A DNA stretch of 43,305 nucleotides from a virus (Duplodnaviria > Caudoviricetes), in the IMG/VR virus record IMGVR_UViG_3300030376_006694, positions 1-43,305 of that record, one strand, 5' to 3'. Below are positions 2,025 to 17,248 of the stretch, in pieces (position 1 is the first letter of the stretch; each line of letters opens with the position of its first letter). The notes beneath the pieces are model-generated. The model saw only the letters and a list, made by a program, of their open reading frames with translations. It searched no databases and had not been told where the DNA came from. Both the position numbers and the translations under genes were made by a program.

Positions 2025-2324
2025 ATGGATGTCTTGTCAATACTAGACCAATATGGAATACCTTTAACTGTCGCAATAGCGTTCGGGTATTTTATATGGA
2101 AACAGAATCAATTTATACAGCATACACTAATGGAAGAGCTAGAAGAATCTTTTAATCGACTAGAAGCTATTACTATAAAGCTTATAGATGCCCAAAAACA
2201 GTCTTTAATGGAACAAAAAGAGATTAAAGCTAGTTATCATGCCATTGTAGAAATTTTGTCCAGTTTAAGCGGAAATGGTCTTAAAGATAAGTTTGTTAAA
2301 AAGAGACGAGATAGGGACTATTAA
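2025..2324 (+). CDS. Holin-like membrane protein (BhlA-like layout)
   Basis: ILDQYGIPLTVAIAFGYFIW TM helix, coiled coil and basic C-terminus. Confidence 0.6.
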   Translation: MDVLSILDQYGIPLTVAIAFGYFIWKQNQFIQHTLMEELEESFNRLEAITIKLIDAQKQSLMEQKEIKASYHAIVEILSSLSGNGLKDKFVKKRRDRDY

Positions 2325-13129: not shown

Positions 13130-13432
13130 TTATATTTGATTAATTTCTTTTATATCTACTATTCTTAACTCTAACAATCCATCATCTCCAGAAATCCAAA
13201 TTGTTGGAAATTGGCTGTATTCATCCACATACACGTCATATCCCTCATAAATACTAATTTGTTCAATATCTTTTTTTATAATATCAGTCCAAAATGGCTT
13301 TGTGTTTTTATTGTATCTTAATACGTTAGAGTTCCAAACATCTTTTTTAATTTTACTTGCTATCAATTCTATGTCATCCAAGTTAGTTCTGCATAGAACT
13401 TGATTGTTTTTTTCTTTTATAATTAGCTTCAT
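13130..13432 (-). CDS. First early ORF, hypothetical (MKLIIKEK...)
   Basis: ATG at 13432 with GAGGG upstream. Confidence 0.6.
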   Translation of the reverse strand: MKLIIKEKNNQVLCRTNLDDIELIASKIKKDVWNSNVLRYNKNTKPFWTDIIKKDIEQISIYEGYDVYVDEYSQFPTIWISGDDGLLELRIVDIKEINQI

Positions 13433-13446
13433 TATTTGCCCTCGTT

Positions 13447-13522
13447 TGGTTAGCACCTAGAGAAGGAGTCGAACCCTCATAAAACAACCCTAGAATATAA
13501 ATATTCCGTTTATTACTAGGTG
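13447..13522 (-). ncRNA. tRNA-like element (acceptor stem plus T-arm, no recognisable D-arm or anticodon)
   Basis: CACCTAG/CTAGGTG stem, GAGGG-TTCGACT-CCTTC T-arm, trailing CTAACCA. Confidence 0.55.
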
Positions 13523-13892
13523 TATGTTCTTAGTCGTTGTTATCAATAACCCACTTAAACGCCACCCTCAAAAACTAGGTTTCAAAGGCTAAGTTTATAT
13601 AATTGCACGTTGTGTATTATATTTAATTTGTCATAGTGTCCATCAAAAAGAACCCCTCTCGGATATTTTAAATACCCTTTAGCTCGGTTTCCCTCCGAAC
13701 GTGCCTCAAATCTACTACGTTTTTTCTATCCTTGGTGAGTGGTGATACAGTTTTGAGATATACTCTAAACCTTCTATTTCGTATAGTTATAAAGCCTAGC
13801 CTTATCCACTACACACGAAACAATAATTTCTCACTACTCATTTATCCAATTAAATCTATTCAATAGAAATAACCTTCAATTGTGTTGGTCTA

Positions 13893-13961
13893 TGTCAAAA
13901 AGCGTTAGCCGTATTTCTTGGCTACCATACGTTAAGACACTAGCCCTACCAATTGCAACAC
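13893..13961 (-). promoter_or_regulatory. Early promoter followed by a hairpin and boxA-like antitermination site
   Basis: GTG-TTGCAA (13953-58), 18 nt, TAACGT (13929-34); hairpin TAGCC-N9-GGCTA (13906-24); CGCTTTTTGACA (13893-904). Confidence 0.55.
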
Positions 13962-14194
13962 TTATTTGTAATACATTAAAATAATTAAGGAATATTTGAC
14001 AATAAATAGGCACGTACACGCGTAGGAGGTTCTCGACGAGAGATTGCAAACGCGAACTCAACGTGGTTCCCGTACGCGAACGGAGCATCGAGGGGGGTGG
14101 TCCTATATATATTGCCCACCATCCATTTTTTACACTATTTTTGAAAAGAGGTACTCAACGAGTTGCTAGTTGTTTGGGACTTGCATTTGATTAT

Positions 14195-14583
14195 TAGGAG
14201 AGAGGGGGCTAAATATTATTTTATACTACATTTGACAAAGGGATGTATTACCTAGCCCCCCAGCGGAGTTTTATTTAAAATACTATACTTTTCGTATGTG
14301 TCTGGTGGATGTTTGAGCTTAAATTGGATAGAGACATCCTTACCCCTTATTATAAGTAAGGACGCGTCTCTTTTCCTTTTCATGTGCCTGGAGCCATGTT
14401 TATCGCTTTAGGATATACTACTTAAGTATATTTAGTAGTAATGGACAGTTTTCATTATTGTATATACACAGTGAAACTACCTTGACTGCCTTCGACCTGG
14501 TAATCCGCTTTGTTTCATCCCCTTTTAGTAGCGGCTTTTAAAGACTGTATGCTAAAAGTATTGAACCAACCCATACAGCGCAC
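14195..14583 (-). ncRNA. Candidate large structured non-coding RNA
   Basis: No ORF of 60 aa or more; several helices, some needing G-U pairs that favour the minus strand; promoter TTGGAA-18-TAAGTT with extended TG at 14588-14617. Confidence 0.55.
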
Positions 14584-14638
14584 TAGTAACTTAACATAAT
14601 TATCTATTAAGTTCCAAGAATTTTGTGTATATTAATAT

Positions 14639-15481
14639 GTGGAAGTAAAATGTAGAAATAAAACATTTAATGTATATTCCTTAGAAGAAGCAGAAGAATT
14701 AGGAATAAACCCGATAAAAAAGTGGCGAGAAGCCCAAGTTGATGATTGGGTAGAAACGTGCGATGAGAAAGTTCTACAAGTTATAGGTAGAAGGACTGAA
14801 AATAAAAAAGGTCGCAAGCCTGTAGATATTATTAGAATTGGGTACGGAGAAGTGCCATGCTATAAAAAACATATATATGCGCATCAATACCCAGATTATA
14901 ATTATGATAATATGTTTGAATACAATCTTGTTCGTGACCTAAAGCCTACTTCACTACAAGCAGATTTTGCTCGTAAGCTTGCTAAACATGGCAAATTAGA
15001 CAAACAAAACGATTTTACGAAGGAAAGCCTTATCGACACATATCAAACTGTATATGAAGATAATAATCCAAACACATCGTTAAAACGAGCAAGAAGAATA
15101 TTAACAAAGAAAAGCGTTAGGAGGATGATGAGCGAGTTAATGAAAGATAGATTAGAGAATGTTGGCCTAGATGATGATTATATTGCGGCGGAATACAAAG
15201 AATTTATCGATAATAAGAAAATACCACCAAATGTTCGCTTAAATGCTTTAAATAGAGTAAGCACATTACGTGGCCATGATGATAAGAAGGTTGAGTCGCT
15301 CGAAGGTAGTACAATGATTCAGCTAGAAGACGGAGACAAAAAGCTATTAGCTGTTGCTAGGAAAATGCTGTCAGCAGACGAAATAGATAAATTCCTTGAA
15401 CAAGGAGAAATAAATGGAATTAACAAGCAACAATCACCCAGAGAAGGAGATAGAAGTAAGCCTAGACGTGGAAAGCGGTAA
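14639..15481 (+). CDS. terS: Putative terminase small subunit
   Basis: Position upstream of terL; SLKRARRILTKKSV and VRLNALNRV helical motifs. Confidence 0.55.
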   Translation: MEVKCRNKTFNVYSLEEAEELGINPIKKWREAQVDDWVETCDEKVLQVIGRRTENKKGRKPVDIIRIGYGEVPCYKKHIYAHQYPDYNYDNMFEYNLVRDLKPTSLQADFARKLAKHGKLDKQNDFTKESLIDTYQTVYEDNNPNTSLKRARRILTKKSVRRMMSELMKDRLENVGLDDDYIAAEYKEFIDNKKIPPNVRLNALNRVSTLRGHDDKKVESLEGSTMIQLEDGDKKLLAVARKMLSADEIDKFLEQGEINGINKQQSPREGDRSKPRRGKR

Positions 15482-15617
15482 TTTATATGTAGGAAGCTCT
15501 TGTTATGAGCTAGAAGATGATGTATTAGATGTCATTGATTCTTTAATGACCGAATTAAACGTATTGGAACTAGCATTATATCACAATGTAGGTTCTAGCA
15601 TGAACGCTAAATCATGA
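15414..15617 (+). CDS. Acidic hypothetical protein
   Basis: AAGGAG RBS; ATGA coupling to terL. Confidence 0.6.
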   Translation: MELTSNNHPEKEIEVSLDVESGNLYVGSSCYELEDDVLDVIDSLMTELNVLELALYHNVGSSMNAKS

Positions 15618-17248
15618 TAGATTATAATCTTACAAAAGAAGAAAAGCGTGAAATAGTAAGAAGAATGTATTTAGACGTATTTTTCTTTGCTAAGATTATA
15701 CTTGGAGATGAGAAGCAGCCTATGCACTACCATGTTAGGTGCGAATCACCTCCTTTCCATAAAGAAGTCATAGATACCCTTATTAATTTAAATGAAGGTG
15801 AGAAATTAGCAGTTGTTGCTCCTAGGGGACATGCGAAATCTACCCTTATATCCCTAATATTCCCATTGCATAGAATATTATTCGGAGAAGAAAGGTTTGT
15901 TCTCCTGATATCAGAATCAGAAATGCAGTCTAAATATTTATTACAGACCCTTGGAGATGAAATAGAGTATAACGAAAAACTACACTACTTCTTTGGCAAT
16001 AGAATGGGAGATGTATGGGGAAAAGAAGAAAAAGAAATAATAACAGAGTATAACCCCGATGGAAGTGCGGCTGCAACATGTAAAATAATGGTTCGTGGTA
16101 CTGGACAAAAAGTTAGGGGACTTAAATATGGCGCATATAGACCAACGCTTACCATTATAGACGATGGTGAGGGTGATGGCAATGCAGCGACTCCTATGCA
16201 GCGTGATAAATTTAGAAGATGGATTGATACTTCAGTTGTTCCAGGTTCAGATGACGGAAAAATTGTATTTATTGGAACAATAGTAGATGAAGAAGCGTAC
16301 CTTAATACTGTAGCTGGTTCTAAAGCCTATAATAAAGATGGTAAAAAAATAATAAAAGGCTGGAAAGGCTTATTTTATCAATCTATCCTGCAAAACACTA
16401 AACCGCATGAGTTTATTGCATCAGGAAAGGAAATAAATGATAAAGACAAAAATCCAAGCGTTTTATGGAAAGAGCGTAGACCTTATTCATGGCTTGTGGA
16501 ACGAAGAGAGGAAGCAAGAGCTAAAGGAGACATTGGATACTTTTTCCAGGAATATCAAAATGTACCCATGGACGACTCTTTTAGAGTATTTAAAAAAGAC
16601 GACATACAATATTATGATGGTTATTATACTCGTGAAGGTGATATTGATTATATTAATGTTAAAAATGGTAGCGACAGTCTTAAAGTACCTGTTAATATTT
16701 TTATGGGAGTTGACCCAGCATCTTCGGAAAACATTAAAGCTAACTACACTGTAATAATGGTGGTAGGAGTTGATGCGGAATTTAACGTTTATGTTATAGA
16801 CTACTTTCGTGGCCAAGTTTCCCCAATGGATGGAGCAGAAAAAATATTCGAATTGTGCGAAATGTACAACCCTAAATATGTAAATATAGAAGAAACAGGA
16901 CATGTTATGTTAGCTGACTATATGGAAAAAACATCCAAGAAGACTGGAAAATACTTGCATATTAATAGAAAAAAAGCAATTCAGAAAAAATTCTATAGAA
17001 TTAAATCTATGCAGCCCATGTTTGCATCTAAATCAGTGTTCCTTAAAAATGAGCACTATGATTTGCAACAAGAGTTGCTGGGTTTTAAAGAACACGCAAC
17101 GTCAACTAAAGATACCCTAGATGCATTACGATGGGCGACTGATGATATTTACGCTCCCAACTTAGAGTTATCAGAGGGTGGAGAGTGGCAATATCCTGAA
17201 ATGTCTATAGGAGCAGACTGGGAAACTGGGGAATTAATATATAATTAA
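15614..17248 (+). CDS. terL: Terminase large subunit
   Basis: Walker A APRGHAKST, Walker B IIDD, FIGT coupling motif, nuclease motifs GVDPA and DTLDAL. Confidence 0.93.
   Translation: MIDYNLTKEEKREIVRRMYLDVFFFAKIILGDEKQPMHYHVRCESPPFHKEVIDTLINLNEGEKLAVVAPRGHAKSTLISLIFPLHRILFGEERFVLLISESEMQSKYLLQTLGDEIEYNEKLHYFFGNRMGDVWGKEEKEIITEYNPDGSAAATCKIMVRGTGQKVRGLKYGAYRPTLTIIDDGEGDGNAATPMQRDKFRRWIDTSVVPGSDDGKIVFIGTIVDEEAYLNTVAGSKAYNKDGKKIIKGWKGLFYQSILQNTKPHEFIASGKEINDKDKNPSVLWKERRPYSWLVERREEARAKGDIGYFFQEYQNVPMDDSFRVFKKDDIQYYDGYYTREGDIDYINVKNGSDSLKVPVNIFMGVDPASSENIKANYTVIMVVGVDAEFNVYVIDYFRGQVSPMDGAEKIFELCEMYNPKYVNIEETGHVMLADYMEKTSKKTGKYLHINRKKAIQKKFYRIKSMQPMFASKSVFLKNEHYDLQQELLGFKEHATSTKDTLDALRWATDDIYAPNLELSEGGEWQYPEMSIGADWETGELIYN

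Follow-up and report, generated by a model that had tools for sequence, protein, structure and literature searches.

A predicted pseudoknotted RNA family of tailed phages with a co-evolving pair of repeat arms

The locus and its features

The window considered here is a whole stretch of viral DNA, the 43,305 nucleotides of IMG/VR record IMGVR_UViG_3300030376_006694 (Caudoviricetes), which represents a near-complete (~99%) uncultured marine phage with a genome of ~43 kb. Early genes for a Sak annealing protein, a replication initiator, and a resolvase run leftward from ~13456, and morphogenesis genes for the terminase large subunit, a P22-like portal, and an SU10-type capsid run rightward from 14639. 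Between these two sets of genes, the original prediction placed an RNA of ~400 nt with its own promoter and many helices, transcribed away from the terminase genes and possibly acting as a switch, a packaging RNA, or an anti-defense RNA. The principal features around this RNA are the following.

14049-14151, plus strand: DNA-type motif CTCAACG..GGGGGG..TATATA..CAT..TTTTT (the G-run motif), kept in RNA-bearing and in RNA-lacking terS relatives
14204-14260, minus strand: GC-rich hairpin with a long loop, outside the family core; predicted in 11 of 12 long-form sequences while its sequence changes
14588-14617, minus strand: sigma-70-like promoter TTGGAA-18-TAAGTT with TG before the -10 hexamer; predicted transcription start near 14581
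14639-15481, plus strand: small terminase subunit gene (terS), divergent from the RNA and situated before terL and the P22-like portal gene
15614-17248: terL, downstream of terS

The assignment of terS is indirect. Neither PHROG nor Pfam gives a direct match to this ORF (14639-15481), and its homolog in phage G004 (23% identical) matches phrog_51, terminase small subunit, with an E value of 1.2e-6. Among 50,697 records of cultured phages, no match to terS was found and the DNA gave only seven short chance matches. Other observations concern the genes at this junction. Of the 65 loci that have a start codon at the match edge, 31 show a -10-like hexamer only 3-8 nt ahead of terS (14628-14641 in the window), which suggests a leaderless late terS transcript. 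One subclade has a small Lys/Arg-rich ORF of 76-90 aa between the RNA promoter and terS (402-674 in L010, ~960-1280 in L012, plus strand). In terL cluster 8 (L277:386), several members have 674-680 aa where others have 518, which suggests an intein or other insertion in the terL of the short-form clade described below. ARAGORN calls no tRNA gene in the window; a tRNA-like remnant at 13454-13522 on the minus strand, called by neither ARAGORN nor Rfam, combines an acceptor-like stem of 7 bp with a T-arm whose loop looks canonical, but it lacks a D-arm, its anticodon arm is irregular, and its folding z is -0.86.

Both promoter hexamers and all of the helices first described are present in the sequence. 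Promoter-like sites recur at this position across the family: a site scoring at least 9 and ending 13-24 nt before the conserved GGUUGG is found in 15 of 27 representative sequences, compared with 12% of shuffles, and the window's own site, which scores 8, is too weak for listing by the consensus scan. Rfam 15, whose families include ROOL, GOLLD, raiA, tmRNA, group I and II introns, and riboswitches, returns no match in the window at the gathering score and none at E<=10 within 13400-14750, in agreement with the expectation of an RNA outside the known families; ten homolog loci gave six sub-threshold matches and none at the gathering score. Folding of the stretch alone is slightly better than that of 100 shuffles, but equally so on the two strands (z -1.82 and -1.76, with 3 and 4 shuffles as good). 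As single-sequence folding is marginal and the strands are alike, the case for the element rests on its homologs, comparison of which demonstrates, at the level of sequence, the predicted fold and its strand, the position of the promoter, the concerted change of two repeat copies, and a patchy distribution.

Homologs and the conserved fold

Positions 14296-14581 of the minus strand are one member of a predicted RNA family that is absent from Rfam and common to dozens of phages. The first relatives came from terL loci, which yielded ten further loci with the element and two-sided changes in 20 of 42 predicted pairs. A pattern search of viral sequences with the 5' motifs gave at least 80 loci among the matches listed, 75 of these 80 being true homologs; 17 of 33 metagenome loci (from a 3'-domain pattern) and 2 of 11 genome loci (from the 5' pattern) were also true. 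With viral loci numbering at least 80, the family exceeds the count given. The homologs comprise 69 distinct sequences, some loci being redundant (the same phage twice), with an effective depth of only ~24 sequences, and 27 representatives picked at <88% identity were aligned. The patterns that retrieved most homologs fixed GGUUGG, five of the seven kiss positions, and AAGGGG, bases that were already invariant in 11 sequences found through the terminase protein. Attempts to reach beyond this set gave little: matches to the 3'-domain pattern outside known loci were mostly due to chance, and among patterns for divergent members one gave ten loci (three by chance, the rest known), another none true of 15, and a further one 25 loci, all on contigs already known. 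Relatives of the two RNA-bearing genome bins, 200 and 140 further genomes, contained no copy.

Two forms of the RNA are found, a long form of ~285 nt, as in the window, and a short form of ~230 nt that is without hairpin P6, giving a family core of 230-290 nt. The elements of this core, in order from the 5' end of the predicted transcript, are as follows.

14545-14578, minus strand: hairpin P1 (14572-14578 with 14545-14551); two-sided changes in each of the 7 pairs, with 99.5% of cells paired
14557-14571, minus strand: GGUUGG, invariant in 27 of 27 (in part because the search pattern required it), and a 3-bp mini-helix that closes a U-N-R-A-N loop
14522-14558, minus strand: loop-loop kiss, CUUUUAG 14552-14558 with CUAAAAG 14522-14528; paired in 27 of 27 at all 7 positions
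14505-14534, minus strand: hairpin P2 (14530-14534 with 14505-14509); 91% paired, two-sided changes in 4 of 5 pairs
14472-14517, minus strand: pseudoknot PK2 (14512-14517 with 14472-14477); 22-27 of 27 paired per position in the anchored alignment
14477-14503, minus strand: pseudoknot PK3 (14499-14503 with 14477-14481); 3 of 3 counted pairs with two-sided changes, 100% paired
14392-14497, minus strand: P4 (14493-14497 with 14392-14396) enclosing P5 (14485-14490 with 14444-14449)
14416-14440, minus strand: optional hairpin P6, long form only; two-sided changes in 11 long-form sequences
14326-14376, minus strand: 3' hairpin domain with GAGAC/GUCUC, an inner hairpin with AGGGG, and conserved CUCUAYC

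The 5' half is predicted to form a compact core in which three pairings cross between loops. In the 27-row MAFFT alignment, 93.3% of the 751 cells of this domain are paired and 21 of 28 pairs show two-sided change, so that P1, P2, and the pairings TGAAAC/GTTTCA and TTACC/GGTAG, all of which had been described from the window alone, are retained with compensatory substitutions. Controls in which the partners were slid are 30-46% paired, a comparison that favors the structure because the structure was derived from the same sequences. P4 is paired in 22-27 and P5 in 21-27 of 27 rows per position. The invariant GGG at 14519-14521 directly follows the kiss, and the mini-helix pair 14565-14559 reads U-A in 13 rows, C-G in 7, and U-G in 2, with 5 unpaired. 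A scan for variants at the fourth base of GGUUGG found none. The U-N-R-A-N loop is presumably T-loop-like.

Covariation was evaluated in the 69 sequences with an APC-corrected G statistic under two tree-based nulls. All column pairs were ranked; one row had first been placed in a new register, and three were left blank over the 3' domain. The top 13 column pairs are of two kinds, Watson-Crick pairs (in P5, the kiss, P1, P2, and PK3) and identities that link the repeat copies, and seven column pairs reach E<=0.02 under both nulls. The P5 pair 14488-14446 ranks highest (E 0), and the kiss pair 14553-14527, which is A-U in 58 sequences, U-A in 8, and G-C in 3, likewise has E 0 under both nulls. 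Three pairs of P1 reach E<=0.02 under both nulls, the P2 pair 14533-14506 has E<=0.02, and the PK3 pair 14500-14480 has E values of 0.18 and 0.02 under the two nulls. PK2 is 76% paired on the MAFFT alignment with 4 of 5 pairs changed on both sides, and no single pair of it is significant (E 2.5-7). The RNA is assigned to the minus strand because G-U cells outnumber A-C cells by 107 to 9. The homologs thus support the central expectation of a minus-strand, multi-helix, pseudoknotted phage RNA outside Rfam, led by a promoter, as a predicted transcript.

The long-range architecture first envisaged fared differently. Two pairings that would close the whole domain, and with it permit a two-state switch, do better than shuffled targets in the window sequence (p 0.01 and 0.02). 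Of the other 28 rows scored, a further row being too short, none has both pairings better than shuffles, and the pairings would break the best-supported pairs. A 6-bp core of a long-range pairing, AAAGGG/CCCUUU, survives in the five closest relatives listed without beating shuffles. The switch depends on these long-range pairs, which are kept in the window sequence only, and it is not upheld.

The hairpin at 14416-14440 (P6) covaries within the long form, but it is missing from the short-form rows; in one sequence (L151) the P6 region carries an internal 20-nt tandem duplication, showing that insertions are tolerated in P6. At 14326-14376 the hairpin domain itself is kept, but the inner register proposed earlier, GTCCTTAC/GTAAGGAT, is replaced by CCUUA/UARGG as the best-kept register, with five pairs of which two show two-sided changes; no pair of this domain, blanked in three rows, is significant by covariation. 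The GC-rich hairpin at 14204-14260 retains its shape in the long-form clade but lies outside the family core, and by eye no hairpin is seen at the same position in the short-form clade. It is regarded as a separate element since a counterpart, also recognized by eye, occurs in two RNA-lacking sister phages, and in the long-form clade it is possibly the 3' end of the predicted transcript. The length of ~400 nt first suggested is therefore reduced to a conserved core of ~285 nt, although the transcript may run on to this hairpin. Two likenesses to introns were set aside, one between group II domains V-VI and P4 with the 3' hairpin, the other between group I P7 and GAGACUA/UAGUCUC: the order is wrong, a bulged A is lacking, and Rfam gives no match.

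Genomic context and patchy distribution

The RNA stands back to back with a terS-family gene in 88 of the 94 true loci, in two phage clades whose terL proteins are ~31% identical. The six loci elsewhere are L141, L147, L156, L185, and two in genome bins, where GC-rich copies lie on prophage-like contigs; these two copies keep the kiss, the pseudoknots, and the repeat described below. L147 belongs to the phage G002, whose terminase and capsid families differ, and is situated ~2.4 kb from a putative terS and ~6 kb from a terL of another family. The genome-bin copies are situated in early or immunity regions, one of them downstream of a cI-like repressor (labels taken from translations). Flanking genes are on the opposite strand at terS-linked loci, at the first three of the named loci, and on the two genome-bin contigs. 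Each of eight genomes has a single copy.

Many relatives are without the RNA. It is absent from 79 terS/terL-relative loci and from all 17 whole records of sister phages of the same terminase family, 8 of them at least 90% complete. A quick terS tree requires three gains or losses, with two RNA-lacking phages nested among RNA-bearing ones at support of 85-90. Given these absences and this nesting, the RNA behaves, so far as sequence comparison indicates, like an accessory gene that is usually antisense to its neighbors. Several features occur at loci where the RNA is lacking. Six such loci share a conserved ORF of ~70 aa, ~200-240 nt before terS and preceded by palindromic repeats, and two others have tandem near-palindromic repeats of ~12 nt at 100-250 nt before terS. 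The ~70-aa ORF resembles what we take to be a DUF736-type single-strand-binding protein.

The G-run motif at 14049-14151 is by inference likely a packaging-start or terminus region. Because RNA-lacking relatives retain it, this motif is considered a separate, probably packaging-related element rather than a part of the RNA. A strict pattern for it is matched downstream of 35 of 78 homologs, 247-540 nt from GGUUGG. Runs of CA, GT, or CG dinucleotides lie upstream of the motif in relatives, and 48 of 78 terS loci are on contigs that end within 2.5 kb upstream, at scattered end positions.

Proximity to this motif raises a reading in which the RNA is a cis element belonging to the early leftward transcript or to the neighboring DNA site. 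Such a leader, antiterminator, or primer RNA would control read-through across the putative packaging site or help to start replication. In favor of this role, 88 of 94 loci place the RNA between terS and, where seen, the G-run motif, and in one subclade repeat copy 2 also resembles a ribosome-binding site ahead of an ORF. Yet the distance to the DNA motif varies (247-540 nt), sister phages keep that motif without the RNA, six loci are in other contexts, and a same-strand ORF downstream is confined to a single subclade (cluster c9, 16 loci), with none in the window or in other clades. A cis-acting element is accordingly judged quite improbable.

The long-lasting linkage to terS across clades with ~31% identical terL also bears on the earlier suggestion of a packaging RNA, here taken as one whose complementary loops could pair between molecules to assemble a ring on the prohead. 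The precedent is the pRNA of phi29, like the present RNA a small phage RNA with two complementary loops and, as the RNA here usually is, associated with packaging (PMC5066667). That pRNA, however, is essential and, in the account given there, described only for phi29-like phages of ~20 kb with a terminal protein (PMC5066667), whereas the present RNA is dispensable by its distribution and belongs to phages that encode TerS, TerL, and a P22-like portal; the window itself is a 43-kb genome with TerL, a P22-like portal, and a TerS-family gene. Since the RNA is also found far from terS in unrelated phage and prophage-like contigs, among them the copy ~6 kb from terL in G002 and the two in early or immunity regions, and since sister phages (0 of 17 records) do without it, a packaging function is very unlikely.

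Large phage RNAs provide another comparison, and in detail the RNA works like no described RNA. The ROOL and GOLLD RNAs are likewise encoded by phages or prophages and contain several pseudoknots and kissing loops (PMC12286853), and the three crossing pairings of the present RNA are a feature of this type. ROOL and GOLLD, however, have 659 to >800 nt, are often near tRNA islands, and are in Rfam, and the available account mentions no direct repeat in them (PMC12286853). The twin-arm RNA, by contrast, has 230-290 nt, a third to half of their size and below the 600 nt or more typical of them, no Rfam match, no true tRNA beside it and so no tRNA-island context, and a direct repeat that covaries. 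The function of ROOL and GOLLD is described as unknown, and ROOL is non-essential in one strain (PMC12286853).

No description of a twin-arm pseudoknotted RNA was found in the literature. The catalog of Fremin 2023 (PMC10690425), which holds 8,495 candidate structured-RNA motifs of 29-151 nt from IMG/VR, gave no motif or contig match in four supplementary files, and its alignments may hold a fragment. A preprint (10.64898/2026.09.22.753630), judging by its accessible part, treats other RNAs.

A candidate protein partner was also considered. The 99-aa membrane-type protein at 2025-2324 (plus strand), which has at least 1620 relatives and no Pfam match, is common to both RNA-bearing clades and the unrelated G002. 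Although 13 of 15 RNA-bearing virus records encode it, so do 2 of 11 that lack the RNA, and it is missing from both genome bins, so that it was rejected as a partner; more likely it tracks kinship or host rather than the RNA, and it may mark a common host group.

The repeat pair and its possible role

Flanking the 3' hairpin are the two copies of a direct repeat.

14382-14391, minus strand: repeat copy 1, CCAGGCACAU, directly after conserved GGCU
14296-14309, minus strand: pyrimidine tract Y-Y-C-W-C-Y (14304-14309) and repeat copy 2, CCAGACACAU (14296-14305)

This repeat, like the kiss, P4, and P5, had escaped notice in the window sequence. The same lineage-specific sequence of 8-12 nt appears on either side of the hairpin, the pyrimidine tract being present in 26 of 27 rows by eye. 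The copies match at no fewer than 6 of 9 positions in all 69 sequences. Across 15 lineages, identity between a lineage's own copies averages 7.7 of 9, compared with 2.8 between lineages, and identity of at least 7 of 9 is reached in 14 of 15 own-copy comparisons but only 4 of 210 cross-lineage ones. Copy identity covaries at 14386=14300 with E 0 under both nulls, and when placed on the terS tree the repeat changed several times within the short-form clade, both copies each time. The residual differences are also patterned: among 21 differences in 16 lineages, read from copy 1 to copy 2, there are 18 of G>A, 2 of T>A, 1 of A>T, none of A>G, and none between C and U. Some 11 of these 18 trace to a single ancestral position, giving ~7-8 independent events by our count, and in several lineages a single G stands at another position of copy 1. 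Copies are spaced 73-94 nt apart without helical phasing or reading frame, which points to an RNA rather than an array of DNA-binding sites. A repeat pair that changes in lockstep and shows this one-way substitution was found in no catalogued family. With the covariation in the core, it identifies what is, by comparison of sequences, a real, uncatalogued, and structurally well-supported phage RNA family with an unusual co-evolving pair of arms.

Direct repeats that change in step are understood to be a property of the antisense RNAs c4 of P1/P7 and CI of P4 as well, in lineage-specific form. In those systems the repeats are the targets of a guide loop in the same locus, whereas here no complement in a guide loop was found and there is no Rfam match. 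Neither covariation nor a longest-helix search revealed an internal Watson-Crick partner of the repeat, and no consistent antisense 11-mer exists in eight phage genomes, a search that guides of <=7 nt elsewhere in the genome could escape. In one host bin there are 6 other exact sites, compared with 4 for a control pattern, and none of them is in an Rfam RNA.

A repeat on either side of a folded unit could in principle mark the ends of a template. The RNA of DRT2 is likewise pseudoknotted, and its template, bounded by two direct repeats, is copied by a reverse transcriptase (RT) that jumps from one repeat to the other and makes tandem-repeat DNA (PMC12039810); on this model the RNA would serve an RT in trans, which would jump from copy 1 back to copy 2, and both genome bins do encode RTs, on other contigs. 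DRT2, as its report describes it, has a fixed three-base motif in the repeats, a unit whose length divides by three and whose frame is open, and an adjacent RT gene (PMC12039810), and none of these three is found here. PF00078 is present in 0 of 18 virus records and no RT Pfam match was obtained for the 53 ORFs of the window, searches that a very divergent RT could escape. Unit lengths fall in all three frames (6, 8, and 9 of 23, only 6 being divisible by three), and an open frame is present in 4 of 23 concatemers and missing from the other 19. In addition, the G of copy 1 against the A of copy 2 would leave a C-A mismatch on re-annealing. The likelihood of an RT template is accordingly slight.

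Alternatively, the core itself may act upon the copies, as a self-processing ribozyme or selfish RNA that cuts or joins the same position in both and frees the 3' domain as a monomer or circle. The invariant junction bases and crossing helices have a density reminiscent of ribozymes, and both copies follow a C-W-C-C context and could dock in turn. The known self-splicing and self-cleaving RNAs, to our knowledge, hold their substrate via an internal guide; no covarying internal guide is found in this RNA, and there is no Rfam ribozyme or intron match at E<=10. A self-processing role is thus considered distinctly unlikely.

More plausible, if still unlikely, is recognition by protein, both copies being bound or cleaved by one host protein, for example a defense ribonuclease with sequence specificity, which would cut out, or be trapped by, the hairpin between them, much as ToxI and pseudo-ToxI neutralize ToxN. 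Two similar sites do flank a single folded unit, the distribution is patchy, phage-borne, and lineage-specific, and a phage RNA that mimics an antitoxin is documented, providing a precedent for counter-defense by an RNA with repeats flanking a folded unit (PMC3475682). ToxI, however, consists of 36-nt pseudoknots in tandem (PMC3475682), whereas here two copies of 8-12 nt stand behind a separate conserved core and enclose a single hairpin of 73-94 nt, with one copy of the RNA per genome and no Rfam match. A decoy would also leave the large conserved 5' core unexplained, and the one-way G>A pattern would not be expected of it.

The one-way G>A differences are the pattern expected if both copies face a U in the same target, with copy 1 pairing slightly more weakly. 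The reading preferred here, tentatively and with less than even confidence, is that of an accessory RNA acting in trans, whose two arms base-pair with one host RNA. Its own promoter would drive a stand-alone RNA of 230-290 nt. The repeat copies would be single-stranded arms that pair in trans with the same RNA, presumably host-coded, with the weaker copy 1 (G-U) handing over to, or working beside, the stronger copy 2 (A-U), and the pairing would blunt a defense or redirect the host early in infection. As a structural guess, the invariant G tracts that flank the kiss may anchor the pyrimidine tracts before each copy so that the arms project from the core. An anti-defense or host-takeover role, one of those first proposed, is thus close to the best reading. 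Several points weigh against paired guide arms: the searches for a target inside the RNA, in eight phage genomes, and above chance in one host bin found none; a change between G and A is in any case an ordinary transition; similar covariation would arise if a protein recognized a short motif; and adjacency to terS in 88 of 94 loci is unexplained beyond inheritance.

A bolder form of this reading, in which the RNA represents a new class of phage guide RNA, is doubtful. Here a conserved scaffold with three pseudoknots would display a single reprogrammable sequence on both arms, each of tuned strength. Such an RNA might capture, silence, or cut a host RNA without a phage protein, be retargeted by changing both copies together, and have passed between unrelated phages and prophages of the sea. 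Should the arms prove to be guides, the RNA would constitute a protein-free, programmable phage RNA for host takeover or counter-defense. Whatever the role, this orphan family is compact and well supported, it occurs in at least three phage types and over a wide range of base composition, and its RNA is small enough for probing, self-cleavage tests, and cryo-EM. Moreover, the co-evolving copies, which likely serve to bind a host RNA or protein, point to a functional interface, such that whatever binds the arms is the partner.

Coding potential near the repeat is limited to particular lineages. A 43-codon frame that opens in copy 1 of the window was rejected, as it stops at once in the relative L001. 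In five loci of cluster c9, copy 2 reads as a ribosome-binding site before an ORF of 80-114 aa whose product has an N-terminal hydrophobic stretch.
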